Shown: in pieces, positions 25,444 to 49,100 of the stretch
Layout of the letters: each line of letters starts with the position of its first letter
How positions within the stretch are numbered: the stretch's first letter is position 1
Assembly: GCA_937873455.1 (NCBI GenBank)
Contig: CALMYG010000034.1
Coordinates: forward strand, 25,405-89,404
DNA from: an uncultured Verrucomicrobiota bacterium
GTDB lineage: Bacteria > Verrucomicrobiota > Kiritimatiellia > CAIVKH01
Length of the DNA stretch: 64,000 nt
Reading direction: 5' to 3'
The notes under the pieces: generated by a model
Seen by the model: only the letters and a program-made list of their open reading frames with translations
What the model was told of the DNA's origin: nothing
The model's database searches: none
Position numbers and translations under genes: made by a program

Positions 25444-27770
25444 AGAAACCCGCCGTGATCCCTCCACCCGACCACCCCTACCGGAACCCCGCACTGGCCG
25501 TCGCCGAGCGGGTCGCCGATCTGCTGGCGCGCATGACCCTCGAGGAAAAAGTGGCGCAAATGTGCTGCTTTGTGCGCGGGACCGCGCCTGTGAATGAAGA
25601 CGGCGCCTTTTGTCCGGTCAAGGCCCGCACCATTTTTCCCCACGGCATCGGCGGCATCGGTCAACCCGGAGACCTCGGTAAAAGCCCCGCCGGGTATACC
25701 CCGCGGCCGGCCCTGGAGATGGCCGCCGCCGCGCCTTGCTCAACCGGCGCCCGCGAAACCGCGGAAATCACCAATGCCATCCAACGGTTTTTCATGGAGG
25801 AAACCCGCCTCGGCATTCCCGTCCTGTTTCATGTGGAGTTGCTGCATGGCCTGGCCGCGCAAGACGGCGTTTGTTTTCCGCAGGCCATCGGTCTGGCCAG
25901 CGCGTGGGATGAACATCTGATCCGCGACGTCTTTGCGGCGGCGGCAGTGGAGTCCCGGTCGCGCGGTCTGGCCCAGGCCCTCTCACCCGTGCTCGATGTC
26001 GCCCGCGATCCGCGTTGGGGGCGCACCGAGGAAACCTGGGGTGAAGATCCTTATCTGTGTTCCCGCTATGCAGTGGCGGCGGTGCGCGGCGCACAGGGCG
26101 AAGGACCATCCATCGGCCCCGACCACGTCGCCGTGACCCTCAAACACTTTGCCGCCTATGGGCAAAGCGAAGGCGGCCGCAACACCGCACCCGCCAATCT
26201 CTCCGAGCGGGTGTTGCGCGAAGTCCACCTCCCGCCGTTCGAGGCCGCCATCACCGAGGGTGGCGCTCTCGGCATCATGCCCGCGTACAACGAAATCGAC
26301 GGAATGCCCTGTCACGCCAACCGATGGCTTCTTCATGACATCCTGCGGAACGAGTGGAAATTTGAGGGGGTTGTCATCAGCGACTACTCCGCTATACGTA
26401 GTTTGTGCGATGCGGATGAGGGGCACCACGTCTGCCCCCACGCCGAAGCCGCCGCGCAACGCGCCCTTCACGCTGGCGTGGACATGGAAACGCCCGACGG
26501 GTTTGCCTACCCCACCCTCGTCGCCCAGGTGCGGAACGGGCAGGTCAGCGAAGATGCGGTCAATGTCGCGGTCGCCCGCATCCTCCGCCTGAAGTTCCTG
26601 CTCGGGCTTTTCGACAATCCTTATGTGGAACCGGATCACGCCGAGCGCCGTTGCGGCAGCCAGGAGCACAACGCACTGGCCCTGCACGCCGCCCACCGAT
26701 CGATGGTGCTTCTGAAGAACGACCGGCAGACGCTCCCATTCTCCCGGGCAAGCCTGTCGAAACTGGCGGTCATCGGCCCCAACGCCGCAGACTGCCACAT
26801 CGGAGGTTATTCCGGTTGGCCGAGCTATGCGGTGGACCTGCTCAGCGGCATGCGCAACCGCGCGGGTGCTTCAATCGATGTGGTCTATGCTGAGGGATGC
26901 CGCATCACCGAAAACCGGGGAGCGCGGGACTGGATGTCCGAGGTCACGATCCCGCCGCGCGGGGACAACAAAGCCCGCATCACGGAGGCCGTGGCGGTGG
27001 CGCGGGAGGCCGACGCCATCGTGGTGGCGATTGGCGAAAACGAGGAATTGTGCCGCGAAGGCATGGACATGGATTCCCTCGAACTGGTCGGACCGCAGAA
27101 CGAATTGGTGTCCGCGCTGGCCGCACTAGGCAAGCCCCTCGTCGCGGTCGTATTCAACGGTCGCCCCCTGTTGCTCAACCAGGTGACCGAACAGGCCGAT
27201 GCCATCATCGAGGCCTGGTACCTCGGACAGGAAACCGGCCACGCCGTCGCCGACGCGTTATTTGGTGACATTAACCCCGGCGGCAAATTGCCCATCACCT
27301 TCCCCCGCACCACCGGATCGCTGCCAGCGTATTACAACCGCAAACCCTCAACCGCCCGTTATACCTTCGGCGAAAACACACCGCTCTATCCGTTCGGTCA
27401 CGGCCTCAGCTACACCACGTTCCGCTACGACGACCTACGCATCGACCCGCCGGTCATCCGGGCGGATCAAGCGACCCGCGTCATGGTCACCGTCACCAAC
27501 ACCGGAGCCCGCGAAGGCGACGAGGTGGTGCAGCTTTATATCCGCGACCGGGTCAGCTCGGTCACCCGTCCGGTCAGGGAACTCAAGGGCTTTGAGCGCA
27601 TCACCTTGGCACCGGCTGAATCGCGCACCGTGCGTTTCGAGATTGGGTTTGAACACCTTAGCTTCTACAACGAGGATATGAAGCTGACTGTGGAGCCGGG
27701 CGAGTTCGAGTTTTTTGCGGGCGGTGATTCGACCGCACCGTTAACCGCCGTACTAACGGTGACAACATGA
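25440..27770 (+). CDS. GH3 beta-glucosidase
   Basis: MTLEEKVAQM, DPRWGRTEETWGEDP, KHFAAYG, GVVISDYSA (nucleophile region), and a C-terminal Fn3-like domain. The TTG start overlaps the upstream stop. Confidence 0.88.
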   Translation: MKKPAVIPPPDHPYRNPALAVAERVADLLARMTLEEKVAQMCCFVRGTAPVNEDGAFCPVKARTIFPHGIGGIGQPGDLGKSPAGYTPRPALEMAAAAPCSTGARETAEITNAIQRFFMEETRLGIPVLFHVELLHGLAAQDGVCFPQAIGLASAWDEHLIRDVFAAAAVESRSRGLAQALSPVLDVARDPRWGRTEETWGEDPYLCSRYAVAAVRGAQGEGPSIGPDHVAVTLKHFAAYGQSEGGRNTAPANLSERVLREVHLPPFEAAITEGGALGIMPAYNEIDGMPCHANRWLLHDILRNEWKFEGVVISDYSAIRSLCDADEGHHVCPHAEAAAQRALHAGVDMETPDGFAYPTLVAQVRNGQVSEDAVNVAVARILRLKFLLGLFDNPYVEPDHAERRCGSQEHNALALHAAHRSMVLLKNDRQTLPFSRASLSKLAVIGPNAADCHIGGYSGWPSYAVDLLSGMRNRAGASIDVVYAEGCRITENRGARDWMSEVTIPPRGDNKARITEAVAVAREADAIVVAIGENEELCREGMDMDSLELVGPQNELVSALAALGKPLVAVVFNGRPLLLNQVTEQADAIIEAWYLGQETGHAVADALFGDINPGGKLPITFPRTTGSLPAYYNRKPSTARYTFGENTPLYPFGHGLSYTTFRYDDLRIDPPVIRADQATRVMVTVTNTGAREGDEVVQLYIRDRVSSVTRPVRELKGFERITLAPAESRTVRFEIGFEHLSFYNEDMKLTVEPGEFEFFAGGDSTAPLTAVLTVTT

Positions 27771-29590
27771 AAACATGCAAAGCAGATGTAGCCATCATCG
27801 GTGGAGGATTCGGCGGCGTAGCCGCAGCGCTGGTTTTGCTGGAACAAGGCCGATCCGTGGTGATGATCGAAACCTACCCATGGATCGGCGGACAGGTCAC
27901 CAGCCAGGCGCTATGTGTGCTCGACGACTACCACGACCCGGTGGGCGAGACCACCGGCATCAGCCGCGCCTATGCCGAATTCCGCCGTCGCGTGCGTGAC
28001 TATTACCGGGAACACCTTCTGTTCTCCCCGCTGGGCGCGGCGCAGCTATATTTGAACCCGGGCCAGGCGATTTGTTCCCACCTCGCCGCCGAACCACACA
28101 TTGCCCACGCGGTGTTGATCGCATGGCTCAAGGAACGTTGCGCACGCCCCGAACAGCTTCGGCTTTTCGCCGGGTATCGCGCCCGATCACTTCAGCGCGA
28201 AGGCGACACCATCGTATCCTGCATTGCCGAACCGATCGATGCGCAGACCGGAGAAGCCTTCCAGATCGAGGCCGGTTTTTTCCTCGATGCCACCGAGACG
28301 GGCGAAACCTATCCGCTCCTGAACATTCCCTTCCGGACCGGATCCGAAGCGCGCGATGAATTCGACGAACCGCATGCCCCCGCCGTGGCGTTACCAGAAT
28401 CGCTCCAGTCCTTTACCATGTGCCTGGCAGTTGAATACGTGCCGGGCGGAGATTACCGTATCGCGAAACCGAAGGACTACGAACGCTGGCGCGACCGCCA
28501 ATCCTTTGCCTTATACGCGCCGGGATGCAGCCCCTCCTTCCCCGCCCGGATGTTTGAAGCCCGCACATCGCCTCAAGGGCAGTATGTCTCCGGCGCGTGG
28601 TACTACCGCAGCGTGCGCGATCCGCGCAATTTTTCGCAACCGGGACTGACCGCCCGGACCATCATCAACGTATCCGGCAACGACTACCACGAAGCGCCTT
28701 ATCTCGCCCGACCACACGATGGCCAAGCGCTGGATGAAGCTCGCCACTTGTCGCACTGTTACCTCTACTGGTTGCAACACGAAGCGCCCCGGGATGAAGG
28801 TGGTCGCGGTTATCCGGAAATCCGGGCCGTCCCGGAAATGACCGGCACGGCGGACGGCATCGCCATGGCCCCCTACATCCGCGAAGGCCGTCGCCTCGCC
28901 GCCTGCACCATCGTCACCGAACGCGATCTGCATGCACAGTTCTGGCCGGGCAGCCGGGCCCGGCCGTTTAGCGACTCGGTCGGCCTCGGTTGTTATATGA
29001 TCGACATCCACCGCACCACCGGCGGCGCGCCGAACGTATGGGAACCAGCCCGCCCCTACCAGATTCCGCTGGGTGCGTTGGTGTCCCCGGCGCTCAACAA
29101 TTTCGCCGTGGCCAACAAAGGCATCGGGGTCACCCAGATCGCCAACGGCGCCTACCGCCTACATCCCGTAGAGTGGGCGATTGGCGAAGCGGCCGGCCTG
29201 CTGGCCGACTACGTCCTGACCCACGAACCGCGACACCCTCATCTGCAGGGCGATGATTTACATAACTTTCAACGTGCACTCGTTCGTCGCGGCGTGCCGG
29301 TTTACTGGTATCAGGATGTGCCGTTCGACCTGCCCGGCTTTGAGGCGATGCAACTGCTCGGCGTCGAGGGCATCTGGACCGGTGACGCCGAACACCTGCG
29401 CGGCCAACCCTTCGACAGCATCAACTATCACCGCGAGCCGTTCGTCGCCGCCCTGGAAAAACTGCCCGCCCTGCCGGATCGCGATCTGCTGCGCCGGGTC
29501 TATCTTACCGCACACAACGCCCGCAAACATGATGTCATGCAGGTCATCGACACCATGCGGCGGACATACGAAAGAACAACAGCATCATGA
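27767..29590 (+). CDS. FAD-dependent oxidoreductase (PF12831-like), function unknown
   Basis: Rossmann motif DVAIIGGGFGGVAAA at the N-terminus. ATGA overlaps with both the GH3 stop and the GH1 start. Confidence 0.7.
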   Translation: MKTCKADVAIIGGGFGGVAAALVLLEQGRSVVMIETYPWIGGQVTSQALCVLDDYHDPVGETTGISRAYAEFRRRVRDYYREHLLFSPLGAAQLYLNPGQAICSHLAAEPHIAHAVLIAWLKERCARPEQLRLFAGYRARSLQREGDTIVSCIAEPIDAQTGEAFQIEAGFFLDATETGETYPLLNIPFRTGSEARDEFDEPHAPAVALPESLQSFTMCLAVEYVPGGDYRIAKPKDYERWRDRQSFALYAPGCSPSFPARMFEARTSPQGQYVSGAWYYRSVRDPRNFSQPGLTARTIINVSGNDYHEAPYLARPHDGQALDEARHLSHCYLYWLQHEAPRDEGGRGYPEIRAVPEMTGTADGIAMAPYIREGRRLAACTIVTERDLHAQFWPGSRARPFSDSVGLGCYMIDIHRTTGGAPNVWEPARPYQIPLGALVSPALNNFAVANKGIGVTQIANGAYRLHPVEWAIGEAAGLLADYVLTHEPRHPHLQGDDLHNFQRALVRRGVPVYWYQDVPFDLPGFEAMQLLGVEGIWTGDAEHLRGQPFDSINYHREPFVAALEKLPALPDRDLLRRVYLTAHNARKHDVMQVIDTMRRTYERTTAS

Positions 29591-31005: not shown

Positions 31006-31615
31006 GGCTCTTCACGCCTCCATCCACAAACAGCATGTTGGCCAGGTCCCGCGATCCATGGCGGAAACCGGGCACCCCCCAGGTCTGGTTCCGGTCCGCT
31101 TCATACATGATGTCGGTATTCCCCTCCACGACATCTCCGATCAGAATAATGTGATTGGGGCGCTCGACCACGGCAGCGTTATAATTCCATTGCGCCCACT
31201 CCATGTAGGCATTCAACGCATATGAGGTCTGGTTGCCCGCCAGCGGACCGGAAACGGAACAATTCAAAACCGACTCAACATTCGTCCGGCCGCCTTGTGA
31301 CAAAATGTAGGGTTCCAAGTGCCGCTGCCAGCTTAGGGGGCTCGGATTAAATTTCGGTGTGAACCGGTTGTCATGGTCGGCGCGATAGGCGGTCTGCGCG
31401 ATTCCGATCTGACGGAGATTGGAAAGGCACTTCGTCGTTTGGGCGCTTGCCCGGGCTCTTCCCACCATGGGAAAGAGTAATGCGCCCAGAATAGCAATAA
31501 TCGCAACCACCACCAGCAACTCAATCAGGGTAAAGCCGCACGCACACATGCTTTTTCCGCCAGGGTGCTTCTCGCTTGTTATCTTGTTTCGTTTCATCGG
31601 CACGGTAGTGTTCAT
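30956..31615 (-). CDS. Prepilin-type N-terminal cleavage/methylation domain protein, DUF1559 (H-X9-DG) pseudopilin-like
   Basis: [21 protein letters not shown] class-III signal. C-terminal [18 protein letters not shown]. The start is uncertain (31615, 31597 or 31549). The 3' end overlaps GH1 by 50 nt. Confidence 0.8.
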
Positions 31616-31706: not shown

Positions 31707-32585
31707 CTAATGCGCCTGGTGGCGATAACGAAGCGGGGATACGCCATAGACCTGTTTAAAGGCCCGAATAAACGCGGTGGGCGATTGGTATCCCACTTGC
31801 TGCGCCACGTGCATCACTTTTTTCCGCGTACTGCGCAACAGCTTGGCCGCTTCAGCCAACCGGGCCCGATGCAACACCTTGCCGGGCGATTCGTTCCACT
31901 GCGCCTTTAACTTGCGGGACAGGTAGGTTTGCGAATACCCCATCTTCTCAGCCAGCTCCTGAATGGATCCCGGATGAAAGGAAAGCAATTTGCTGTCATA
32001 GCTCTTGGACAACAACACCGACTTTCCGGAAACCGTATGCTTCTCCGCGGCTTGCCACCAGGTATTCAGAAATTCAAAGGTACACAGGGACCATTCCTGA
32101 ACGGGGAAGGTTTTTGCAGATTCCGCCATGGCAATAAGCTTCCGGGCCTTGGGTATCACCGCGCATCGTGTGGGCAGGCGGTGGATGATGCCGAATTGGG
32201 AACGGATATAATCAAACATGGCCAAGGCCAAGTCGCCCGCCACATGTACCCATATCGTGTGCCACGGACTTCCCTCTGGAACCCGCACGAACGCGCCTTG
32301 GGCCGGACGATGCAGCGCGATCACCGTACCGGCATCCAGTGTAAACTTCCGGTCGCCCACCTCGTAATAGGCAAAACCGCCGAGCGTCATCACAAAAGCG
32401 CCCTGGGCGTCGATGGCATCCATGAAGAGATCGTGCCGCCGCTTTTCCTCAACCACGCTTCGGGACTCCCCGCACATGAAGAGCTGGTACACCGGCCCAT
32501 CCCAATTATCCACCACCGGACGAAGGTTGTGATCCGACTCGTCATGCAACGAACGCGGGAAGGCGGCTGATGTTCGCTTCTGCAT
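31707..32585 (-). CDS. AraC-family transcriptional regulator
   Basis: N-terminal cupin-like domain and a C-terminal double HTH (IQELAEKMGYSQTYLSRKLK ... VMHVAQQVGYQSPTAFIRAFKQVYGVSP). Confidence 0.88.
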   Translation of the reverse strand: MQKRTSAAFPRSLHDESDHNLRPVVDNWDGPVYQLFMCGESRSVVEEKRRHDLFMDAIDAQGAFVMTLGGFAYYEVGDRKFTLDAGTVIALHRPAQGAFVRVPEGSPWHTIWVHVAGDLALAMFDYIRSQFGIIHRLPTRCAVIPKARKLIAMAESAKTFPVQEWSLCTFEFLNTWWQAAEKHTVSGKSVLLSKSYDSKLLSFHPGSIQELAEKMGYSQTYLSRKLKAQWNESPGKVLHRARLAEAAKLLRSTRKKVMHVAQQVGYQSPTAFIRAFKQVYGVSPLRYRHQAH

Positions 32586-32731
32586 GGTTTTGATATTAGT
32601 GCATATCGCCAGGCCTGTCCACCGTTTCGTATCTTGACCCCCTGAAAAGCGTCGTTGACGTCCATGCGGTTTATCGACGCCGGCACGCCATCGAATCAGG
32701 GAAACCCGCCAAACCGCCGCGGAGCATGATC

Positions 32732-34402
32732 ATGACGAAACAAACCTATGCATCACGATCCAGCAAACTGGCCGTCGGCTGCGCGGCCCTGGCCGCTATC
32801 TGCGGCCCATCATCCGCGTTTACGGAGGAGACCATCATGCCCTCGAAAACAACCACCCGGACGGAGCGGCCCAACATCGTCTTTGTGATCACCGACGACA
32901 TTGAGCGCTTCATGTTCAACGCGCTTCCCGAAGGCCGGGGCAAAAATCTGACCCCCCACCTTGATCGACTGGAGCGCGAAGGTGTACTCATGGCCGGACA
33001 ACACGTTGCTTCGGCGGTATGCACGCCCAGCCGCTTCAATGTGCTGACCGGATTGTTTGCCAGCCGGGCGCTGAATGTCACCGAAGACGAACAGGCCGTG
33101 GTGGCCTTTACCACGCACATTCATCCCGATGACAACACCCTGCCCAAACGACTTCAACAGGCCGGTTACCGGACCGGCATGGCCGGCAAAAACCATGTAG
33201 TGCACGGTCCCAGCGGCCCCGACATCCCGCTGGAGGCCGATCCGAGAGATCCGGAAATCCAAACCGCGTTACGCCAGTATCAATCGGAATATGAGGCAGC
33301 CATCCGCCAAGCCGGTTTTGATTTCGCCGGCGGTATCTATCCCGGCAACCCCGACGAATTGCGTCCGCGGGCGCTGCGCATCCACAACATGGATTACGTA
33401 ACCGACGCCGCCCTGCGATTCATTGACCAACAAGACGAGCGCGCGCCGTTTTTCCTCTACTTCGCCACCACCTTACCGCATGGCCCGATTGAACCGGAAC
33501 GATCCTGGGACAGCGATCCGCTGCTGACCCCGTTCGGCGTGCTCGACGAGCCGCTTCAGGTCCTGCCGCCTCGCGCTTCGATCGGCGAACGAATCCGGGC
33601 CGCTAACCTGAAAACGTCCGGCCCCGACGAGGGAACCCATTGGGCGGCCGAACAGGCCCCTTATGTGATGCTGGCCATTGACGATGCCCTCGGCGCCTTA
33701 TTGGCGCGCATGGAATCCCGCGGCCTGCTGGAGAACACCATCCTCTTTTTCTTCAACGATCATGGCTGCGACGCCAAAGGCACGCTGTATCAAGGCGGGC
33801 TTCAATTCCCCAGCATCGCTTGGCGACCGGGGGGATTTGCCGCGGGATCGCGCCGTGATGACCTGGTCAGCAATGTCGATTTCGCCCCCACCATTCTCGA
33901 TCTGGCCGGCATCGCTTATGAACCGGCGCAATTCGATGGCGTCAGTTTCCGCGACATTCTCGAGGGCGCGGAGCAACCGGCCGATCGAACGCTCTACGCC
34001 GAAATGGGATTCAGCCGGACCGTGCGAAAGGGCGAGTGGAAATACCTCGCGCTGCGGTACCCCCCGGAGGCGGTAAACATGCCCATGGAGGAGCGCCGGC
34101 GCCGACTGGAGGAATGGAATGACCACTTGGGGGAGCGCGGCATCGAACCGGTAAACACCGACCCCGCCGCTCCATTCAGCCACCTGACCGATCTCCCCGG
34201 CGGCGCCCACGCCGAACACTCGACCACCGGCAAGAAGCTCCACTACTACGATCCCGATCAATTATTCAACCTGGCCGACGACCCCGGCGAAAACCACAAC
34301 CTCGCCGGCGACCCCGCTTACGCGGAAAAACTGGCGGAAATGAAAGAACTTATGCGGCTGCATGTCCAAAAATTGCCCGGAAGTTTTGGGGAGTTCAAGT
34401 AG
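32732..34402 (+). CDS. Exported sulfatase (formylglycine-dependent)
   Basis: Signal peptide KLAVGCAALAAICGPSSA. NIVFVITDD, CTPSRFNVLTG. GGAG lies 7 nt upstream of 32732 (alternative ATG at 32726). Confidence 0.88.
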   Translation: MTKQTYASRSSKLAVGCAALAAICGPSSAFTEETIMPSKTTTRTERPNIVFVITDDIERFMFNALPEGRGKNLTPHLDRLEREGVLMAGQHVASAVCTPSRFNVLTGLFASRALNVTEDEQAVVAFTTHIHPDDNTLPKRLQQAGYRTGMAGKNHVVHGPSGPDIPLEADPRDPEIQTALRQYQSEYEAAIRQAGFDFAGGIYPGNPDELRPRALRIHNMDYVTDAALRFIDQQDERAPFFLYFATTLPHGPIEPERSWDSDPLLTPFGVLDEPLQVLPPRASIGERIRAANLKTSGPDEGTHWAAEQAPYVMLAIDDALGALLARMESRGLLENTILFFFNDHGCDAKGTLYQGGLQFPSIAWRPGGFAAGSRRDDLVSNVDFAPTILDLAGIAYEPAQFDGVSFRDILEGAEQPADRTLYAEMGFSRTVRKGEWKYLALRYPPEAVNMPMEERRRRLEEWNDHLGERGIEPVNTDPAAPFSHLTDLPGGAHAEHSTTGKKLHYYDPDQLFNLADDPGENHNLAGDPAYAEKLAEMKELMRLHVQKLPGSFGEFK

Positions 34403-34477
34403 CCGGTGACCTCCGGGTCCCCAGAGCGCGGCCCGGGACATCGACGAGCGGGCGGTAGTGCGAAAAAACACCTCGCC

Positions 34478-37400
34478 ATGGTGGCCGCCTGCGCGTGGCT
34501 GACCGGTTGCAACACCGCTCACGCCGCGACCCTCCTCACCGATACGTTTTCGGACGGAGATCGAACCAACCATCCCGCATGGTTCATCAGCCAGGGATCG
34601 TTTAACGTCGCCTTTGGCGAGGCCAATAACAACAACTCCTCGGCGAACCAGTTTTTTACCACCGCGTTTGCGCCCACGCGCCCCGACGATCAACAGGGAT
34701 TGCGGGTGACCCTGAGCTACCGGCCGGAAGGACTCAACCTGTCCTCGGTCAGGGTGGGGGTTTTTGCCGGCGATCCGCCTGCCGCCGACAGCTGGGACCA
34801 ATGGAATCCGGGCAACCCGACCCGCGCGTGGCGGGGATATGTGGCGTCGATTGCCGTAAACGGGAGCAGCGCCACCGAGATCCGGCGCAATGACAACGAC
34901 ACCGACAATCACGCCTTTTTCGCCGGCGCCATGATCGGCAGCCCGGGCACCACGCTGCATACCGCCGGCTCATCCGTCTTCCGTTGGATTCGTTTTGAGT
35001 TGTATCGCCGCCAGGAGGCGATGGTGTTGGAGGTGTTTGAAGGGCCTACCCAGAATGATTTCGTCAGCCTGGGTCAAGTCACCGACGAAGATGCGCTTAT
35101 GGATGACTTCCGGAATCTCGCCCTCTATCAGACCACCAGCGGCGGCAACGGTCATATCCGCTACGACAACATCACGCTGGAAACATTTTCCACGGCGCAT
35201 GCCGTCGAGCCGCCGGTTCTGTCCATCCACCCCGCCGGGGCGGGCCACCTGTTGGTGACGCTCTCCAATGTGACCGTTGGCCAGACCTACGAAGTGAGAA
35301 CCGGTCCCTTTATGGATATCGATACGTATACCGTGGTTGACCGCGTCACCGCCACCAACACGGCGGCCTTGGCAACCTTTCCCGCAATTCATGACATCGC
35401 ATGGATCTGGGGCGTCGCCACCAACGGAAGCGCGATGCTGGACGTGGCGGCTCACCGTGACTACGGCACCTGGCGCAGTTCCATTTTCGGCGGCGGCGGC
35501 TACCTGCAGCATATAGTGTTCGCACCTTCCCAGCCCAACCGCATGTACAGTTATGTCGATGTGGGCGGGGTGTACCGCAGCGACGACGCGGGCCGGACCT
35601 GGCGCATGATGCACGGCGGCATGCCGGTCGGCGACGGGTATTACTCCGTGCGGGGCCTGGCCGTCGCCCCGGACGATCCCGACCGGGTCGTCATCGCGGT
35701 GGGCAATCAGTGGACGCCCCGCAAAGGCATTTACGAATCCCAGGATGGCGGCCTGAGCTGGACGCCCGTGCTGACCGCCCAGGTGTACGGCAACGAAACG
35801 CGCCGCGCCACCGGCTTCGTCTTCGCCCGCGATGCGCTGGGCCGGTTGCACTTCGGCTCCGCCGGTGACGGCGTCTGGGTGAGCCTGGACGACGGCGCCA
35901 CCTGGTCGGCGCGCGGCTTGACCGGGATCAACATCACGGATGTGAAGTTTGCCTCCGATGGCCGGGGCTGGATCTGCGCCCATGCCTGGACGCCCCACGG
36001 CAAATCGCCACTGGCCGGCGGATTAATTATCACCCGCGATCACGGCGAGACCTGGTCGCCGATCGCCGGACCCGCGCCCGATGAACTTGTCGTGGCCCCG
36101 GACGGATCCATCGTCGGAATTTTCTCGTTCAACCAACTTCAGCGCAGCACCGATGATGGAGAAACCTGGATGGAGTACTCGGACGGCCTCCCCGTCGACC
36201 CGGTAGCCGCCCAAGGCTTGACCAGTGAAAGCCGTTTCAGCGCATTGGCCGCCGGCCCCGGCTTTCTCCTCGCCGGGTCCGCGCGTGGCTCCGTCTATCG
36301 CCGCGGGATGAACGACGCCGCATGGCAGAACATCGTGCGCGAAACCGTGGTCGAGGTCGTCGAGGGCGAACCGTGGTGGGGCCGGTTGCAACCGGATGTC
36401 TGGCCGCATTTCGGCGCGGCCATGGGCAGCTTGGTCGTCGTGCCGGGACAGCCGGATCACTGGTGGTTTACCGACTGGTACAGCGCCTACGAAACCACCG
36501 ACGCCGGCCGCACCTGGGTGCAGCGCATCGACGGCATCGAGGTGACGGTCATTCATCACATGGTCGGCAACCCCGCCGATCCCGCCCGGATTCACGTCGG
36601 CATGGCCGACAACGCCTATGCCCAATCCACGAACGGCGGATTGCGCTATGACACGCCGAAAAAAACCTTCTCCAGCTTGAAGATGCTGGCGGTGTCGCCC
36701 GCCCTGCCCGGACGGCTCTACGGGGTCGGAGACAACCGGACGGAATGGCGCGCCGAAAAATTATGGGTCAGCGTGGATGCCGGCGCGACCTGGCTGACCG
36801 CCCCGATGCTTGGCCTTCCCCCCAGCTCCCAGCACAGCATGAACTCGATCGCCGTCCACACCGAGCGACCCTATGAGCTCGTGGTCGGGGTCTCCGGCCG
36901 GGTGGGCGAAGGCGGCGGCGTGTACCGGAGTGTCGATGGCGGACGCTCCTTCAGCCCGGTGAACAACGGCCTCGAAGGGGCCGGCTCCTTGTTCCGCTAC
37001 GACATTTGGTCCATCGGACCCGAACTCGCCATGTCCCGGTCCGGGCACATGGTCGCGGCCAGCCACGAAACGGGCCGGGTTTATTACCACGACGACTCCC
37101 AATGGCGCGTGGCGGACGTCACGCCGGGCGGCAAGCCCCGTTACCTCGTGGCGGCGGGCGACCTCTTTTACCTCGCCTGCCGCGAAGGCGGTTTGCTGAA
37201 AAGCGAGGACGGCGGACGACGCTGGACCTCCATCCTTGCCGAGCAGACCATGGTGGTCGCGGCGGATGCGACGGATCCCGGGCTGATTGCCGCCGCCACC
37301 GCCCACCGCCTGCTGATCAGCCGCGACGGCGGCAATGTGTGGTCGGAATTTCCGCTGCCGCCGCAAGGCCAGGTTCGCGCGCTGGCCATCTCCGGCCCGC

Positions 37401-38005
37401 GCCTTCATGCCGGCACCGCGGGAGGCGGCATGTTCTGGATGGCGCTGGACGAGGCGGGCCTACTGCCAATGACGGCGGGCGAGACCGGCCCCGGCATCGT
37501 GCCGGTGCGGGAAGATGTCGATGCGCGCGCGCCGGACATTACCGACGGCTCCTTCACGAACGCAGACAGCGTCGCCCAGCGCTGGTCAGGCTGGACCGGA
37601 CAGGGAATCAGCGAGCGGTCGTGGAGCGCGGACTCGGCCGACGATCAGGGCGGATCCTTGCGGCTCCGTTCCGTGGATGGACCGGCCAACACGTCGGTCG
37701 GCTATGCGCTTCAAGCCGTCGAAAACCGTTTCAATATCGCACTGGCCTGGAAATGCACCGGGAACGATAACGTGGACGTTCACATCGCGGTGCGTTCCTA
37801 CCGGGGCGGCGCGCAGGTGGGCTGGCAAACCCTGACCCGGATCACCGGCCCATCGCCGGCATGGATCCGGATCGAACGCGAGGTCCATCTCGCCGAAGGC
37901 GCCGACCGGGGCGAGCTGGTCGTGGTGCTTACCGGCGAAGGCGCAGTTTGGCTGGACACCCTATCCACCTCCATTCCCCCGCTCCTATTCGGAACACCCC
38001 GGTAA
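34478..38005 (+). CDS. Lipoprotein made of three parts: an unassigned 'DGDRT-NPAW' domain, a beta-sandwich, and a GH74-like double propeller with a CBM-like tail (paralogue of 18262..20985)
   Basis: The ORF is open from 34406. MVAACAWLTGC lipobox at 34478. From HRDYGTWRSSIFGGGGY (35453) onward it is colinear and highly similar to 18439..20985. Confidence 0.8.
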   Translation: MVAACAWLTGCNTAHAATLLTDTFSDGDRTNHPAWFISQGSFNVAFGEANNNNSSANQFFTTAFAPTRPDDQQGLRVTLSYRPEGLNLSSVRVGVFAGDPPAADSWDQWNPGNPTRAWRGYVASIAVNGSSATEIRRNDNDTDNHAFFAGAMIGSPGTTLHTAGSSVFRWIRFELYRRQEAMVLEVFEGPTQNDFVSLGQVTDEDALMDDFRNLALYQTTSGGNGHIRYDNITLETFSTAHAVEPPVLSIHPAGAGHLLVTLSNVTVGQTYEVRTGPFMDIDTYTVVDRVTATNTAALATFPAIHDIAWIWGVATNGSAMLDVAAHRDYGTWRSSIFGGGGYLQHIVFAPSQPNRMYSYVDVGGVYRSDDAGRTWRMMHGGMPVGDGYYSVRGLAVAPDDPDRVVIAVGNQWTPRKGIYESQDGGLSWTPVLTAQVYGNETRRATGFVFARDALGRLHFGSAGDGVWVSLDDGATWSARGLTGINITDVKFASDGRGWICAHAWTPHGKSPLAGGLIITRDHGETWSPIAGPAPDELVVAPDGSIVGIFSFNQLQRSTDDGETWMEYSDGLPVDPVAAQGLTSESRFSALAAGPGFLLAGSARGSVYRRGMNDAAWQNIVRETVVEVVEGEPWWGRLQPDVWPHFGAAMGSLVVVPGQPDHWWFTDWYSAYETTDAGRTWVQRIDGIEVTVIHHMVGNPADPARIHVGMADNAYAQSTNGGLRYDTPKKTFSSLKMLAVSPALPGRLYGVGDNRTEWRAEKLWVSVDAGATWLTAPMLGLPPSSQHSMNSIAVHTERPYELVVGVSGRVGEGGGVYRSVDGGRSFSPVNNGLEGAGSLFRYDIWSIGPELAMSRSGHMVAASHETGRVYYHDDSQWRVADVTPGGKPRYLVAAGDLFYLACREGGLLKSEDGGRRWTSILAEQTMVVAADATDPGLIAAATAHRLLISRDGGNVWSEFPLPPQGQVRALAISGPRLHAGTAGGGMFWMALDEAGLLPMTAGETGPGIVPVREDVDARAPDITDGSFTNADSVAQRWSGWTGQGISERSWSADSADDQGGSLRLRSVDGPANTSVGYALQAVENRFNIALAWKCTGNDNVDVHIAVRSYRGGAQVGWQTLTRITGPSPAWIRIEREVHLAEGADRGELVVVLTGEGAVWLDTLSTSIPPLLFGTPR

Positions 38006-38142
38006 CCGGCAAAACACACCACAACAACGGAAGTCTGTTTCTGCACACTTACAATATTATTGCAATGCTCACACGCCGGGCAAAACGTGTAATTTAATGA
38101 CAAACAACGGAAGTATTTGTTTCCAAACCATCAGGAGTAATT

Positions 38143-39117
38143 ATGACGAATCGCCTCGCTTTTTTGGCCGCATTCATCGGGCTTTCGGGATTGGTAAACC
38201 TCCACGCCCAGATCATCGTTTCCGACAACTTTGCCGACGGGGATCGCACCAACAATCCCGCCTGGTTTATCAGCGGAGGAACATTTAATGTCTCCTTTAC
38301 CGAGGCGAACAACAACAATTCTTCCGTGAATCAGTTCTTCACCACCTCGTTCGCCCCGGTCGATCTCGACGATCAGGACGGGCTTCGCCTGACCATGTCC
38401 TACCGCCCGGAAGGAACGAATCTCGCCACGGTCAAGGTTGGCTTGTTTGACGGTGTCGCTCCTACGGTCGATGGTTGGGCGCAATTTACCGCCGGACAAC
38501 CCACCCGCGACTGGCGGGGATATTTGGCCTCAATCGGTGTGGATGGAAGCTCACCCACAGTGATCCTGCGAAACGATAACGCCATCGACGACCACGCCTT
38601 TTTTACCGGCACGACGATTGGAGCCACCGGCACGACGATCACTGTGGCCGGGGCCGCGACGTTCCGCGTGATTCGTTTCGAAATCTACCGGAGCGGCGTG
38701 GACATGGTACTTGAGGTGTATGAAGGCGCGACCGTGGACACCCTGACCAGCCTGGGCCAGGCGACAGACCTTGGCGCTCCATTCTTCGGCGAATTTAATA
38801 ATTTGGCATTTTTTCAAACCACCCCCACTGGCAACGGCCATATCCGCTATGACAACATCACACTGGAAACCTTTGTTACCGGAAGTCCGATCGACGAGCC
38901 GGTCATGTCCATCCTGCCCGGGGGAGCGGGCAACGTCCTCGTCACCCTTTCCAATCTGACCGTGGGCCTGGTTGGCAACCTCTGGTCGGGAACGACCACG
39001 GACATCCCCAGCGGGGTGATCGTCACCAGCTTTCCGGTCGTCACCGGTACGGAGACCCTGTCGGTGAGCGCGGATGAACCGGTTAAAATGTTCTGGAGCA
39101 CTATCGTTAACCCATAA
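38143..39117 (+). CDS. Secreted protein: 'DGDRT-NPAW' domain plus a beta-sandwich of about 80 aa
   Basis: Signal peptide MTNRLAFLAAFIGLSGLVNLHA. Colinear with residues about 41-370 of the upstream gene. AGGAG lies 7 nt upstream. Confidence 0.8.
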   Translation: MTNRLAFLAAFIGLSGLVNLHAQIIVSDNFADGDRTNNPAWFISGGTFNVSFTEANNNNSSVNQFFTTSFAPVDLDDQDGLRLTMSYRPEGTNLATVKVGLFDGVAPTVDGWAQFTAGQPTRDWRGYLASIGVDGSSPTVILRNDNAIDDHAFFTGTTIGATGTTITVAGAATFRVIRFEIYRSGVDMVLEVYEGATVDTLTSLGQATDLGAPFFGEFNNLAFFQTTPTGNGHIRYDNITLETFVTGSPIDEPVMSILPGGAGNVLVTLSNLTVGLVGNLWSGTTTDIPSGVIVTSFPVVTGTETLSVSADEPVKMFWSTIVNP

Positions 39118-39136
39118 CAAACAAAGGAGAATGAGC

Positions 39137-39946
39137 ATGAAGTTCGCGACCTATCTGTTGGTGTTTGTTTTTTGTGGCATCATTACCAGTCGTGGAGACA
39201 TCATTGTGGCGGATGATTTTTCTGACGGGGACCGTACCGCGAATCCCGCCTGGTACATCAGCGCAGGCACCTTTGCCGTTAGCGGTGGTTCCGCATTTAA
39301 TAACAATTCAACCTTGAATCAGTTTTTCACCACCAGCTTCACCGGAACGGATATCGCGGATGGCACAGGCTTGCGACTTAGCCTGGCCTACCGGCCGGAC
39401 GGGGCGAACCTGAACAGCTTGCGAGTCGGCATTTTCAATGGCATGGCTCCCACCGCCGACGGGTGGGCCCAGTTCACCGCCGGCCAGCCCACCCGCGATT
39501 GGCTCGGTTATTACGCCAATATCGGCTTGACCAACAACTCCGCCACGGCCCTGGTCTTCAATAATAACACCGTCGACGACCATGCGTTTTTCAACGGCAC
39601 CGTGCTGGGAACGCCGGGCGCCGGGACCAATGTGGCGGGCGTGTTGTCCTTCCGGAGTGTAGTGTTTGAGATGTCACGCGACGGCTCCGACATGGTGCTC
39701 AACGTCTACGAGGGACCAAACCTCGACAGTCTAACCCTACTCGCCTCCGCCACCCATGCCGGAGGATCGTTTTCGGGCTTCAATAACGTTGCGCTTTTCC
39801 AAACCACGGGAAACAATCTAAACGGCAATATCCGTTACGATGACATCGAGCTTAGCACGTTCATTGTACCTGAGCCCAATGTGATGCTGCTGTTATGCAT
39901 GGGCGGAAGCTTGCTCGCGCTCCGGCGAAAAATCGCCTCGGTCTAG
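39137..39946 (+). CDS. PEP-CTERM-anchored protein carrying the 'DGDRT-NPAW' domain
   Basis: Signal peptide [21 protein letters not shown]-terminal [22 protein letters not shown] (PEP motif, TM segment, basic tail). AGGAGA lies 6 nt upstream. Confidence 0.82.
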
Positions 39947-39948
39947 TT

Positions 39949-40980
39949 GTGAGCCCGCATTTCCCCCACCGCCGCTTCAACCTATTAACCGGCGACTGGG
40001 TATTGGTATCGCCGCATCGCACCCAGCGCCCCTGGCAAGGGCGCCGGGAACCGGCCGCTCCGGCCGGTCGGCCGACCTACGATCCCGCGTGTTACCTGTG
40101 CCCGGGCAACCAACGCGCCAACGGCGAGCGAAACCCGGATTACGTAGGAACGTTTGTTTTTCCCAACGATTTTCCGGCCTTGCTTCCGGAGGTTCGCGCC
40201 GTGGAAAGCAAGGGCCTTTTCCGGAGTGAAGCGGCTTCGGGTGTCTGCCGGGTCATTTGTTTTTCTCCCCGCCACGATCTAACGCTTCCCCGAATGCCGA
40301 CCTCGGAAATCCGCCGGGTGGTGGACTGCTGGGCGGAACAGGTGGACGAGTTGAGCCGCACGTATCGATGGGTGCAGGTATTTGAGAACAAGGGCGAGGT
40401 CATGGGATGTTCCAACCCCCACCCCCACGGTCAAATCTGGGCGGGAAACTTTTTGCCCAATGAACCGGCCAAGGAAGACGCCCGGCAACGCGAATACCTG
40501 CAGTCCAACGGGCGCATCCTCTTGATGGATGTGTTGCGCGAGGAGCAGGCGGATGGCCGCCGGATCATTCTGGAAAACGAGTACTGGACCGCCATGGTAC
40601 CATTCTGGGCGGTGTGGCCCTATGAGATGCTCATCCTGCCCCGGCGGCATGTACTGCGCCTGCCGGATTTAACCGGGACGGAACGGGATGCCCTGGCCGA
40701 TGTGTTGAAAAAGATTCTATCACGCTACGACAACCTGTTTGAAACGTCGTTTCCCTATTCGATGGGCTGGCACGGCGCGCCCGGCGGCGATGAACGTGAT
40801 GTGGCGCATTGGCAATTGCATGCGCATATTTTCCCGCCCCTGCTCCGTTCGGCGACGGTGAAAAAATTCATGGTCGGATACGAGATGCTCGCCGAAGCCC
40901 AGCGCGATCTCACTCCGGAACAGGCCGCGGAAAAACTGCGGAGCTTGTCGAATACCCATTACCTTGACGCCAGACCATGA
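39949..40980 (+). CDS. galT: Galactose-1-phosphate uridylyltransferase
   Basis: [49 protein letters not shown]. The start is uncertain: GTG at 39949 just after the upstream stop, or ATG at 39895. Confidence 0.88.
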
Positions 40981-42137
40981 ACACCATCACAGACCGGGTC
41001 ATCAAGGCTTTTCACAATCATTTCGGGGCCCCCCCGGCCTGGATCGTCCGGGCACCCGGGCGAGTCAACTTGATCGGAGAGCACACGGACTACAACGACG
41101 GCTTTGTCCTGCCCATGGCCATCGGCCGCGCCACATGGATCGCCCTCCGGTCGCGCCCGGACGGGGTGGTCCATCTTCATTCCCTCGACCATGACGCGTC
41201 CTGTTCGTTTGCGCCCGGGACCGTGGAGCGCGGCCCGATGCACTGGAGCGAGTACCCCAAGGGCGTGGCCCATGTGTTGTCCGGACAGGGGTTCGCACTT
41301 TCCGGTTGGGAAGGCGTCACCGCTTGCGATGTACCGATGGGCGCCGGCCTCTCCTCCTCGGCATCTTTCGAACTCGCCGTGGCCCGCGCCTTCTGCGCCG
41401 TTTCCGGATTTCCCTGGAATGCGCAGGAGATGGCCCGCCTTTGCCAGCAAGCGGAAAACCAATGGGTGGGTGTAAAATGCGGAATCATGGACCAGATGAT
41501 TTCCGCGATCGGCGAGGCCGGAAAAGCGACCCTGATCGACTGCCGCGACAACACCCACCGCGCCGCGCCCCTGCCGCGGGACGTCACCGTGGTCATCATG
41601 GACACCATGACCCGTCGCGGCCTGGTCGAATCCGCGTACAATGAGCGCCGCCGGCAATGCCAACACGCCGTCGGGGTTTTTGGCGTCCATGCCCTGCGCG
41701 ACGTGGATCATCAAACCTTCAACGACAAGGCCGCGCTCCTCGACCCCGTCACGCGGCGGCGGGCCCGGCATGTCATCACGGAAAACCAGCGAACCCTCGC
41801 CGCGGCCGCAGCCATGGAGCGAGGCGATGCGGCAACCCTCGGACGATTGATGAACGAGAGTCATGACAGCCTGCGCGATGACTTCGAGGTCACGAATGAC
41901 GCGCTGAATACAATGGTGGAAGCGGCGCGATCGCACCCGGGATGTTGGGGCGCCCGCATGACCGGGGCCGGGTTCGGCGGATGCGCGGTAGCGTTGGTGG
42001 CGACGCCGGACGTGGCATCGTTCATGGATCATGTTACCACCGCATACCGGCAGGCCGGCAATCAGGCGCCCAATCTTTACGCGGCCACGGCCAGCGCCGG
42101 AGCATCCGCTGATTCCCACGAAAAATCCCGCGAATGA
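40977..42137 (+). CDS. galK: Galactokinase
   Basis: [43 protein letters not shown] overlap with galT. Confidence 0.92.
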
Positions 42138-43915: not shown

Positions 43916-44038
43916 CCTTCGTTTCCCCTGTAACATCATCTTTTCCCGCGCTTTCCCCGCCAGAGGCGGGCAGGCGCGTCGTCCGTAGTTTATCTTTTCG
44001 ATTATTGTTAACGAGGGGGTTAACGAGTGTGTTTACAA
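43916..44038. repeat. Direct repeat R1 (123 bp) flanking the phd/vapC cassette
   Basis: Aligns with 44928..45061. The 51-bp core gtttatcttttcgattattgttaacgagggggttaacgagtgtgtttacaa (43988-44038) is identical to 45011-45061. Confidence 0.85.
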
Positions 44039-44716: not shown

Positions 44717-44752
44717 GCATATAAACTAGTTTGACTGGTTGGATGTGTCAAC
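44717..44752 (-). promoter_or_regulatory. Candidate sigma70-type promoter giving a leaderless phd-vapC mRNA
   Basis: The minus strand reads G-TTGACA-N17-TAGTTT-atatgc-ATG. There is no Shine-Dalgarno sequence. GTTGAC..GTCAAAC is an imperfect inverted repeat overlapping the -35 and spacer. Confidence 0.45.
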
Positions 44753-46144: not shown

Positions 46145-49100
46145 TTAAGGGGTAAAATTCCGGGTGGGCGGGTTATACATCACCGGGCGGTTGGTCCAGA
46201 CCAGGGTCGTTCCATGACGGCGGACGATGACCACGGTATCGTCGGGCTCAATGATGTACCCGGAAGCATTTTGCAGCGATCCGGCATGGCGCCAGGTGTT
46301 GTCCGTCGTCCGCCAGAAAATGCGGGCTTTCGGCGCGACCAGCGAGCCGCTGCCCACCACCTGATTCATTTCATTGGTCACCGGCTTATTGCTCAAGATG
46401 CGGATTTCATCCGACTGCCCGACATTGGGGCCGCCACGGAACCCGTTGTTGGTGGTAATGCCCAAGCTGGACAGCGGAATACGTTCCGGCATCTGGTGGC
46501 TCAGGATGTGGTACATCACGTTGGTTGGCGAAGCAGTCGGCGAGGAAATGGCGTGAACCAGTTCCTGGGTCGGCAGGCGACCCACCATGATCAGGGTTTG
46601 CGGGCTGGCGGATACCGGCAACTCAATCAGGAAGCCCTGACCAAGCGGGATGCGTTTGTTGTTCGCGTTGCCGCTACCGCCGACCAGCCAAGTCCAGTTA
46701 CCCGAATTGGCCAGCCAAACCGTCGCGGTCGGGGCGCTACCCATCGCATCGCCACTGCCGCTATTGCCGAACCACGAAATCTTGGTGGCGTTGATAAAGC
46801 CATCCGCCGAAGGCAACAAGTTGGTGCCGAACACATAGGCCAGGGTGCCTTCGGTCTCGTTGGTGGTCGCCGGATCCGGGAAAGCGAACATCGAGTACCA
46901 GTTTTCGCCCGGATGCAATTGCAGCGCCTTGGCCGCGTAGATTTCCGCGCTGGCCAATCGGTTGGCGTTGTTGGTCTCCCAGCGGCCCGGACGGGCCACG
47001 CGGTAGAACCGGTAGGTGGTTCCGGTCAAATTGCCCGGGGCCACCCGGTTCGTGCCGCCGTGGTCCAGCAACGCCGGGCGGTTGGTGTACTGCATGAACT
47101 GCCACTGGTTGGACAAGCTGTTGCGGAAGCCGAGGGAAGACTCGGTAAACAACACATCGTAATCGCGGAAGACATCTTCTTCTTGCGGCCCGGTCCAGCG
47201 CAGCAGCAGGTCGGTGGAGGTCCGGGCCACGCCCTGAGTGACGATGAACCGGTCGGTGTTGCCGATGATGCTAGCCGCCGGCCCAACATTTCCAGCTCCA
47301 TCGCGGCCTTGGATGTGAATGCGGTAATAGGTGTCGAAGACCAGGTTCGACAACACCAAGTTGGTGAAGGCCCAGTTGTTGAGCACATTCGACCAGGTGG
47401 TGTTAGCTCGAGTCAGGGTCGTAGTCACCGCATTGGCCGCCGGGATCCCGTTGGTATCCGTGACTTCATAATAGGTAACGATGAAGGTATCCCACGGCGA
47501 GAGCGGCGTATTATCGGACTGACGCCAACCGGCGGCTTGGGCGACGTTGGTTCCGCCCGGAGTCCATTCGACCTTGATTTCCGAGGATTCGTCGATCGTG
47601 GGGTCGAAGACATTCCCCCCGGCCGCATCGGTAGCCCGCAACGCAGCCACTGGCGGCGGCGGATTCGTATCCACGCGCAGCGCAAAACTCATGGTATTAC
47701 CCATGGACTGGTCGCCCGGGCGATCGTTGTCGTTATCTACCGCATACAAGAACCCGGTGATGATGCCTTGGTGGCCGAGAATACTGGCCGAAGCGCCGGT
47801 CACGCTGGAACCGTGAATATCGCCTTGCCCCATCGCGGGGGCCGCGCTTCCCTGGGCCGGGGCAACCAGGCCGTAGTAAGCAACCCCGGAGAAGTCGTCG
47901 ATGGCCGGCGCCCAGCTCATATGGATGGTGGCATTGGTCAGGGCATTGGTGCCGATCCAGCCGGAGAGTGTGGTCAGGGCCAGATCGTCGACATAAATCT
48001 GCGACCGGCTCACGCCGCTCGGATCTGCGCGGCGAACCCGATACCTCAGACCCGAACCGTCCGTATCGATATTCCAGGAGAACTGCTGGTAGTCGGTGCT
48101 ATCCACGGTAATGGCCGCAGGTTTCCGGGTGGTGAAAACGCTGATGTTATCGTATTGAATATGCCCGTTTAACCCATCGCTGGTGGTGAAATAGAACGCG
48201 ATATTGTTCAAGCTAAGGTTAGTCAGCGCGCTGGTGTCGGTGGCGGTACCCATACTGAGCAGGGATCCGGGGCTCAGGCCCTCGAATACCTGGAGCTGCA
48301 TGTTGCCGCCGGCCAGGCGGGTCAAATCAAACCGCATCGTCCGAGGCCCGATGCCCTGACGCATGGCCGAGAATCCGGTTCCCAGCTCGGTTCCAGAAAA
48401 GAAGGCGTGGTCGTCGATGGTGTTTTCATTCCGCACCAACCGGGTCGCCTCGACGTTGTCCACGCCCAGTTGGGCAAAATAGCCGCGCCAATCCCGGGTC
48501 GGCTGACCCGCGCCCCATTGGTTCCACCCATTCGCGGTGGGGGCCGCGCCTTGAAAGAGTCCGACCCGGACCGAATTGACCTTCTGGCCGGAATTGGTCG
48601 GCAGCTCGTAGGTGAACATCACGGAAACCGTCTCCCCTTCCGCCAGGCTGACCGGTGCAATCTCGGTGGTAAAATATTGATTCAAGGTGGAACTGTTGTT
48701 GTTGGCGATATGATTGGTCGCCGGCGTGGTGGTGATAATGAAGTTGCCGCCGGTAAACCGCCAGGTCGGGTTGGCGGTGAAGTCGCCGTCATCGAACCCT
48801 TCGGCGAGGATGGATCTGCCGTCATAATTGATCCAGTTCACGCCATCCCACTTGTCCAAGGCCAGCGCAGGAGCGCCGGATCCGCCGGAGACGCGTGAAG
48901 CATATAGGGACAAGGCGCCCGGGTTGTCCACCGGCGGTAGTTGAAGGGCAGCGACGGGAAAGTCGTTGGTCAGAAATCCAATGCGCGCCTTGCCGGACAC
49001 CTTGGGATCCAGGGTGGTAAGGGTGACGCCCTGGCCGCGCCATACCCGGTTATCGAAATCGGTATTGGTCCAGATGACGCCGCTGCTGAACGAGGAGGCC

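Follow-up and report, generated by a model that had tools for sequence, protein, structure and literature searches.

A predicted lectin-fold domain in anchored, free and enzyme-fused proteins of a conserved sulfatase-associated gene cluster in Verrucomicrobiota and related bacteria

Introduction

L-type lectins such as VIP36, ERGIC-53/LMAN1, Emp46p/Emp47p and the legume lectins are β-sandwich proteins whose sugar and metal sites are built from long inter-strand loops. Here we describe a domain of about 225 amino acids (aa) that resembles these lectins in its predicted structure, and that is encoded by three adjacent genes (genes 1 to 3) and by a fourth, giant gene within a 64,000-nucleotide (nt) stretch, hereafter the window, of contig CALMYG010000034.1 from an uncultured Verrucomicrobiota bacterium. 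We consider it probable that this domain is a non-catalytic glycan-binding module, either a carbohydrate-binding module (CBM) or a lectin-like one. Like the L-type lectins, it comprises ~220-230 aa, is modeled as a β-sandwich (template modeling (TM) scores up to 0.66), and has its conserved polar and aromatic residues concentrated in long loops. Unlike these lectins, with which it has no detectable sequence relationship (9-15% identity in structural alignments, no Pfam or PDB sequence match), it is bacterial, is restricted to the Planctomycetes-Verrucomicrobia-Chlamydiae (PVC) group, and is mostly anchored through a PEP-CTERM signal.

Two further classes of known binders invite comparison. The β-sandwich CBMs found on glycoside hydrolases (GHs) resemble the domain in that it is putatively non-catalytic, is joined by a linker to a GH-like propeller, and also stands alone in the same locus. 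However, it matches no Pfam CBM model and, at ~225 aa, is large for a CBM. The SusE/SusF-like surface glycan-binding proteins (SGBPs) of polysaccharide utilization loci in Bacteroidota would be counterparts by a proposed functional analogy only, as surface-anchored binders within a catabolic cluster. They differ from the domain in fold, in phylum and in anchor (lipoprotein, compared with PEP-CTERM/exosortase), and the cluster that encodes the domain includes no SusC/D pair.

Sulfated polysaccharides are degraded to a major extent by Verrucomicrobiota and their PVC relatives, which do so without the SusC/D and SGBP machinery that accounts for glycan capture in Bacteroidota. The manner in which these bacteria bind polymers at their surface is poorly understood, and the domain described here is a specific candidate for how polymers are captured, as well as a candidate new CBM family.

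A domain shared by three adjacent genes and a giant protein

A preliminary description of the window, made from the sequence alone, had noted a shared ~225-aa domain in three neighboring genes. When each domain copy was compared with the whole window by using tblastn, copies 1 and 2 proved to be 63% identical, copies 2 and 3 58%, and copies 1 and 3 49% (E 1e-61 to 1e-86). All of the motif blocks listed in that description are present in a MAFFT alignment, including the variants GNPTRAWRGY and AMVLEVFEG of copy 1, and the claim is thereby confirmed. A fourth copy, on the opposite strand within a giant open reading frame (ORF), is 40-46% identical to the other three (E 1e-45 to 1e-56). The preliminary remark about 'four copies' suggests that it had been seen already. 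Beyond these four, no match in the window is better than E 0.1. Chance similarity or low complexity can be ruled out as the cause by E values down to 1e-86 and by the retention of the motifs in independent metagenome-assembled genomes (MAGs). The genes, domain copies and associated segments are as follows, with boundaries established in part by a hidden Markov model (HMM) and by AlphaFold2 (AF2) models.

34406..38005, + strand: gene 1, ORF of 1199 aa from a GTG (public gene call, 1175 aa from ATG 34478), with a signal peptide or possible lipobox (LTGC), the predicted lectin-fold domain, a small β linker, a GH74-like double propeller and a C-terminal part of ~155 aa
38143..39117, + strand: gene 2, ORF of 324 aa, with a signal peptide, the predicted lectin-fold domain, a small β domain and no anchor
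39137..39946, + strand: gene 3, ORF and public gene call of 269 aa, with a signal peptide, the predicted lectin-fold domain and PEP-CTERM
34526..35194, + strand: domain copy 1, aa 41-263 of gene 1 counted from the GTG (tblastn and HMM boundaries)
38206..38880, + strand: domain copy 2, aa 22-246 of gene 2 (the copy used for the AF2 model)
39194..39865, + strand: domain copy 3, aa 20-243 of gene 3 (tblastn)
48122..48820, - strand: domain copy 4, aa 5052-5284 of the giant ORF 46145-63973 (HMM envelope; tblastn match from about 48131)
35204..35425, + strand: β linker of gene 1, ~70 aa, homologous to the C-terminal tail of gene 2 (fold by homology to the gene 2 AF2 model)
38899..39108, + strand: small six-strand β domain at the C-terminus of gene 2, aa 253-322 (AF2)
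39866..39943, + strand: PEP-CTERM sorting signal of gene 3, with VPEP, a hydrophobic stretch and RRK

Public gene calls on the same sequence match these ORFs except at the start of gene 1. The domain span given in the preliminary description for a gene starting at 34478 fits the GTG start at 34406 and not the ATG at 34478. The true start of gene 1 probably lies upstream of ATG 34478, because the KKH n-region aligns with the start of a related protein, P0002. The N-terminus of gene 1 (window 34406-34540, + strand) reads KKHLAMVAACAWLTGCNTAHA and is compatible with cleavage by signal peptidase I (AHA↓A) as well as with a lipobox (LTG↓C).

Genes 1 and 2 share a second segment of ~70 aa located 3' of the domain (aa 267-340 of gene 1 aligned with aa 253-322 of gene 2). 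Gene 2, which had been described as a stand-alone secreted protein, is therefore a two-domain protein. It does represent a free form, and its full-length AF2 model places an N-terminal helix at aa 3-15 with low predicted local distance difference test (pLDDT) values, consistent with a signal peptide. In the same model, the tail forms strands at aa 254-259, 264-270, 277-282, 292-298, 303-309 and 314-320, with mean pLDDT values of 63-82 in blocks of 10 residues. Neither a significant Pfam match nor a PDB sequence match was found for this tail, and the linker of gene 1 has no Pfam match. The tail of gene 3 (aa 245-267) passes the TIGR02595 model with 19.9 bits against a cut-off of 16, as expected from the PEP-CTERM signal proposed earlier for this gene, and scores 17.5 bits with Pfam PF07589, under the cut-off of 20.7.

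The domain matches no catalogued family and is rare

Pfam-A (2025 copy), NCBIfam (2026), PADLOC and the PDB sequences were searched for relatives of the domain. The three window proteins yielded no Pfam-A match to the domain at E ≤ 1, none was found on the domain in 33 relatives, and there was no profile match to the Pfam families Lectin_legB PF00139, Lectin_leg-like PF03388, Bact_lectin, CBM, Laminin_G_3 or DUF1080. Pfam matches in the three proteins are restricted to Sortilin-Vps10 and BNR, both on the propeller of gene 1, and to PEP-CTERM on gene 3. The domain body has no NCBIfam match, no PADLOC family was found, and a 13-sequence domain profile retrieved nothing real from the PDB sequences, where a match to a reovirus polymerase (E 0.78) was spurious. 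The domain, previously noted as unassigned, thus remains so in Pfam-A, NCBIfam and the PDB sequences. Because every Pfam and NCBIfam family tried fails the profile test, we regard it as a new sequence family of the concanavalin-like lectin type, a kind already known, and not as a member of any named family.

Weak matches to NF038120 (QFxxD PEP-CTERM family) occur in 13 of the 33 relatives, and those to NF038120, NF038129 and NF038125 (THxN) reach 16-29 bits against cut-offs of 65-85. Like the proteins described here, members of these and of the choice-of-anchor families are small, secreted and β-rich, and have an xxYDNI/FDNV strand followed by PEP-CTERM. However, almost all of the weak matches are confined to the final 30-60 residues, which comprise the last β-strand and the PEP-CTERM tail, and membership in the three NCBIfam families was rejected.

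A first search of about 5.8 billion protein clusters returned 12 proteins, and a profile search of this set yielded 44 clusters at E ≤ 1e-5. When 1.84 billion cluster representatives were scanned exhaustively with an HMM, 37 matched at E ≤ 1e-3, with 16 of these at E ≤ 1e-30. All relatives whose source is named are labelled 'hypothetical protein', and PEP-CTERM is the sole precomputed Pfam domain in the 44-cluster set. A broader, 19-sequence profile used in a word-indexed search found fewer proteins (17, none annotated) and did not widen the family. A motif-seeded scan of one genome per species for 185,579 species, which detects only relatives retaining two seed motifs, confirmed six loci, all of them in MAGs labelled Verrucomicrobia/Verrucomicrobiota, 'PVC group' or Kiritimatiellae. 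Judging from the public data, the family is confined to Verrucomicrobiota, Kiritimatiellae and PVC-group bacteria. Nothing was found in the full-text literature on the domain or on this type of gene cluster.

Predicted fold and conserved loops

An AF2 model of copy 2, generated with a 13-sequence alignment, has a mean pLDDT of 88.2 and a predicted TM score (pTM) of 0.89, and consists of 14 strands and one 4-residue helix. A second AF2 run with the full gene 2 protein reproduced the same strand order. Foldseek comparison of the model with the PDB yielded 369 matches at E ≤ 1e-3, of which the best 50 are all L-type lectins or calreticulin (E 8e-8 to 2e-6, TM 0.47-0.66). Among these 50 are the lectins named in the Introduction, an Entamoeba legume-lectin-like domain and calreticulin globular domains, and there is no enzyme of the same fold. 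These results support the assignment of the modeled domain, at the superfamily level, to the concanavalin A-like, L-type-lectin-like β-sandwiches, and the earlier guess of a concanavalin-like jelly roll is borne out by the model and these 50 matches. Since the four copies are 40-63% identical, they are taken to share this one predicted fold.

According to the DSSP string and the list of conserved positions, 14 of the 30 invariant residues reside in four long inter-strand loops of the domain.

aa 9-27: loop with DGDRT-NPAW
aa 84-104: second loop
aa 125-136: loop with NDN..DDHAFF
aa 207-213: NG turn

The invariant loop residues include three Trp residues as well as His, Gln and Asn, while the motifs NNNS/NQFFTT, YRP, VG.F, R155, R163, EG and IRYDNI are carried on strands. 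Candidate metal- or sugar-binding residues (D12, D14, N37-N39, D129, D130 and H131) are kept only in the subfamily that has the DGDRT motif.

Architectures, subfamilies and descent

Architectures were tallied for 61 entries with strong matches, a number that includes the four window copies and two duplicates of those. About 44 of the 61 entries have the default form, which is a protein of ~270 aa with a signal peptide, the domain and PEP-CTERM. The free form of 324 aa with a C-terminal tail is represented by gene 2 and its orthologues P0002, P0003 and a copy in locus L001. Gene 1 is the propeller-fused form, and a further copy lies near the C-terminus of the giant PATR/fn3/BACON_2 protein (7295 aa in the public call). 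The proteins P0014, P0018, P0026 and P0015 combine the domain with Laminin_G_3, Ig-like or PATR domains. In P0014 and P0018 the Laminin_G_3 matches are on separate C-terminal domains and not on the family domain. P0010 and P0016, encoded in tandem (locus L012, 8493-11434), carry an insertion of ~210 aa in the loop before DDHAFF, and that of P0010 has no Pfam or PDB sequence match. These two genes adjoin two GH94 genes, a PF12831 gene and a propeller gene. P0010, P0016 and P0014 end in short hydrophobic tails ('..FRFR', '..FLFR' and '..FMVVR') in place of PEP-CTERM.

Sorting signals in the core family are either PEP-CTERM or none, and type IX secretion system (T9SS) and dockerin signals occur only in marginal matches. 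The preliminary description had proposed that one domain meets different fates, in the manner of choice-of-anchor families. The first part of this proposal stands, as the domain is found anchored, free, fused to an enzyme and in giant adhesins, but the analogy is loose because PEP-CTERM is the only recognized sorting signal in the core family.

Two subfamilies can be distinguished. About 17 entries have the motifs DG(D/N)xT and D(D/N)HAFF, and a larger group has TG.TFTGW and THPFF. The closest relative of copy 1 is the free, 324-aa P0002 (76% identity over the domain). This protein is also the one that the first 340 residues of gene 1 resemble most, so gene 1 looks like a P0002-type gene that was fused to a propeller gene. 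P0009 differs from gene 3 by one residue. In a neighbor-joining tree, gene 3 groups with P0008 and P0047, gene 2 with the L001 copy, and gene 1 with P0002. Since each window paralogue thus groups with sequences from other contigs, the triplication is probably old and not recent.

A conserved gene neighborhood

The genes surrounding genes 1 to 3 were annotated by using Pfam, and those of most relevance to the domain are listed below.

18262..20985, + strand: second, unfused GH74-like propeller paralogue, 907 aa (Sortilin-Vps10, E 1.9e-24, and BNR)
27767..29590, + strand: PF12831 FAD-dependent oxidoreductase (E 2.7e-74)
30956-31615, - strand: gene for a small prepilin-type N_methyl/DUF1559-like protein, adjoining the AraC gene
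31707..32585, - strand: AraC-type regulator (HTH_18 and HTH_AraC)
32726..34402, + strand: sulfatase (Sulfatase, E 3.8e-39), with its stop 3 nt before the GTG of gene 1
39895..42137, + strand: GalT and GalK (Leloir genes), directly 3' of gene 3

The order of the window cluster is anSME-like radical SAM/SPASM (- strand), GH63-like (- strand), sulfatase, unfused propeller, GH94, MFS_2 transporter, GH3, PF12831, GH1, N_methyl/DUF1559-like (- strand), AraC (- strand), sulfatase, genes 1 to 3, GalT, GalK and DUF4380-like. The first four of these, including the second sulfatase, occupy window 13842-20985. Genes 1 to 3 are part of a long run on the same strand with short gaps, and a terminator scan found no convincing terminator between the genes, with fewer sites than in shuffled sequences. 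Co-transcription of this row of genes is plausible.

The neighborhood was compared among 12 loci, namely the window and 11 further loci (L001 with L003, L002, L004, the P0011 contig, L012, L017, L018, L019, L020, L021 and L023) that span 74% to about 28% identity, with neighbors tallied within 10 kb. A Sortilin/BNR propeller of ~850-1450 aa is present in 9 of the 12 loci, as is at least one sulfatase. The PF12831 FAD oxidoreductase and an AraC regulator each occur in 8, and an N_methyl protein, MFS_2 and GH1 or GH2 are also frequent. No glycosyltransferase or polysaccharide-export Pfam family was found among the annotated neighbors in these loci. The family members in L017 and L019 have no propeller within 10 kb.

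In L002 and L004, a PEP-CTERM domain gene and a propeller gene are separate, immediate neighbors, and there is clear homology between the propeller of L002 and that of gene 1. Two genes that are adjacent elsewhere are therefore joined in the window. In L001, which is from a Verrucomicrobia MAG, a stretch of ~110 nt with homology to the 3' end of gene 1 (L001 9678-9810; window 37890-38005, ending ...FGTPR*) directly follows the sulfatase stop and precedes the gene 2 orthologue. It seems that the propeller-fusion gene was deleted from this locus and left a remnant. L017 has neither the propeller-fusion gene nor the remnant.

The Leloir genes recur only in close relatives, namely the window and L017, where GalK and a GalT-C fragment lie 3' of the gene 2 orthologue. 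GH2 β-galactosidases are present in two further loci. A DUF1559-like gene with a prepilin motif is next to the AraC gene also in the P0011 contig, L020 and L021, and in L003 the gene 3 orthologue is adjoined by genes for a SulP sulfate permease and for a further radical SAM/SPASM protein.

Proposed role of the domain in glycan binding

Several observations lead us to favor glycan binding over other functions. The nearest structural matches of the domain are sugar binders, and Trp, His, Asn and Gln abound in its conserved loops. In its architectures the module behaves as an extracellular one, occurring with a variety of partner domains, and it is linked by a spacer to a GH-like enzyme. Moreover, it is in the constant company of sulfatases and glycosidases under an AraC regulator. 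We propose that the module may serve a conserved PVC glycan-utilization cluster that comprises AraC, one or more sulfatases, the GH74-like double propeller, PF12831, the pseudopilin-like N_methyl protein, MFS_2 and exo-glycosidases. The PEP-CTERM form would be exported, attached to the envelope via exosortase, and would capture polymer at the surface. The fused form encoded by gene 1 may target the propeller enzyme to its substrate in the manner of a CBM, the free form encoded by gene 2 would be a soluble binder of two domains, and in the giant PATR/fn3/BACON adhesin the module could be one of many adhesive units.

The ligand is most likely a sulfated glycan that is attacked by the neighboring sulfatases and propeller. 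The content of GH94, GH3, GH1 and GH74-like genes hints at a β-glucosidic backbone, while GalT, GalK and GH2 hint at galactose in the ligand. A sulfated and/or galactose-containing ligand had been put forward in the preliminary description. The link to sulfatases is strengthened by its recurrence in 9 of the 12 loci, down to ~30% identity, but the Leloir genes on which the galactose component was based are limited to close relatives. More tentatively, and with rather less than even confidence, we suggest that the domain is an exosortase-anchored PVC lectin, the counterpart of an SGBP, which performs capture for an undescribed sulfated-glycan system (AraC, sulfatases, propeller, PF12831, pseudopilin-like protein) and founds a new CBM family for sulfated glycans.

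The domain could itself be catalytic, as a divergent concanavalin-fold GH or polysaccharide lyase (PL) of the GH16, GH12, PL7 or DUF1080-like type acting on the same substrate. Enzymes are common among concanavalin-fold families, the domain has unusually many invariant polar residues (E174, D217, H131, R155 and R163), and it is always found among catabolic enzymes. Nevertheless, we consider this unlikely, given that the top 50 Foldseek matches are devoid of enzymes and that no GH or PL Pfam match occurs at E ≤ 1. Furthermore, D217 resides in the terminal YDNI strand and is probably structural, because LamG and PEP-CTERM β-sandwiches that are non-catalytic also carry YDNI-type strands; where other PEP-CTERM families of NCBIfam match weakly, they do so through this same last strand and the tail. 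The acidic motifs are also lost in the larger subfamily, and an insertion of ~210 aa is tolerated in the DDHAFF loop. A similarly low probability is given to a role in protein-protein docking, whereby the PEP-CTERM form would tether a secreted propeller to the surface and the gene 1 fusion would make this contact covalent. By Rosetta-stone logic, the fusion of domain and propeller in the window and their separate, neighboring genes in L002 and L004 are consistent with such contact, as is the frequency of the propeller near family members (9 of the 12 loci). However, the domain also occurs in a giant adhesin and with LamG, Ig or PATR partners, as well as in the two loci that have no propeller nearby (L017 and L019). 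Its fold and nearest structural matches are those of sugar binders, and a separate β linker domain lies between the fused copy and the propeller, as is usual for CBMs.

Least likely, by a small difference, is that the domain is a self-adhesion lectin for the exopolysaccharide (EPS) of the bacterium itself, active in floc or biofilm formation and unrelated to catabolism, as suggested for other PEP-CTERM proteins. There is a link between PEP-CTERM/exosortase systems and bacteria that produce EPS, one distant member of the family has a weak match to the NCBIfam flocculation protein PepA, and one copy is part of a giant adhesin. In contrast, the neighbors are catabolic (sulfatases, GH1, GH2, GH3, GH94, transporters and an AraC regulator), glycosyltransferase and EPS-export Pfam families are missing from the annotated neighbors of the 12 loci, and one copy is fused to a GH74-like enzyme.

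Several points weigh against a glycan-binding role of the kind proposed above. The identity of the domain to known lectins in structural alignments is only 9-15%. The larger subfamily, exemplified by P0011, is without the acidic DGDRT and DDHAFF motifs, which means that any metal or ligand site must vary among its members. An exosortase was not seen among the window genes scanned, which were part of the ORFs, and none was sought outside the window. The distant relative P0030, at the edge of detection, lies outside this type of cluster. Lastly, sulfatases are very numerous in PVC genomes, so part of the association with them could be background.

The family flags a conserved gene cluster, and in the window three forms of the module, soluble or anchored, are encoded in a single operon-like row. 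Given that the family is small and represented only by MAGs, its impact is that of a well-defined new family and not of a new principle, as a lectin-fold module in a catabolic locus is already familiar.

The propeller and C-terminal part of gene 1

The domain of gene 1 had been reported to lie in front of a GH74-like propeller. This holds true, as the best PDB relatives of the propeller in a phmmer search are all GH74 xyloglucanases (E 5e-23 to 1e-12), with an alignment that covers the first ~200 residues only.

35450..37453, + strand: GH74-like BNR/Asp-box double propeller
37535..38002, + strand: C-terminal ~155 aa of gene 1 (DITDGSF...LFGTPR), with no Pfam or PDB sequence match

The NCBIfam model for F510_1955 glycosylhydrolase matches gene 1 with 122 bits, under its cut-off of 175. 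Two PDB entries of Xgh74A from C. thermocellum differ at one aligned position, which reads ARADIGG in 2cn2 and ARAAIGG in 2cn3. We take the Ala in 2cn3 to be the D70A catalytic mutant of Xgh74A. D385 of gene 1 (SYVDVGG), a candidate catalytic residue, aligns with this position, which is Asp in 2cn2 and Ala in 2cn3. With this Asp retained, the propeller has the look of an enzyme. The second half of the propeller gave no GH74 alignment against the PDB, and from internal pseudo-symmetry D690 (FTDWYS) may be a candidate for the second catalytic Asp.

The propeller resembles the GH74 xyloglucanases in being a double β-propeller of ~670 aa with Asp-box repeats and in the position of the first catalytic Asp. 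It differs from them in that significant similarity is limited to the first ~200 residues and the second Asp cannot be aligned. Its context, with sulfatases and an FAD oxidoreductase, is also unlike that of classical xyloglucan loci. 'GH74-like' therefore appears to be a fair description of this sequence, short of established membership in GH74. Gene 1 may encode a second binding module in its C-terminal ~155 aa.

Other features of the window

The giant ORF at 46145-63973 (- strand) encodes PATR, fn3 and BACON_2 domains, and the N-terminus of its product (7295 aa in the public call) lies beyond the window. This ORF contains at least four copies of another module of ~210-240 aa with the pattern F.YTNG...GW.G.W ... 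FDE(V/I)R(V/I)A..W..L, as well as a partial further copy in its first ~150 residues. This second module has no Pfam match. Kinship of the DGDRT domain with these other, LamG-like repeats of the giant protein was rejected on the basis of an hhalign probability of 0.4%.

A direct repeat of ~110 nt (84-94% identical), located at window 43941-44038 and 44955-45061, flanks a PIN / PhdYeFM toxin-antitoxin pair at about 44097-44734 on the minus strand. This cassette may have been inserted or duplicated at the direct repeat.

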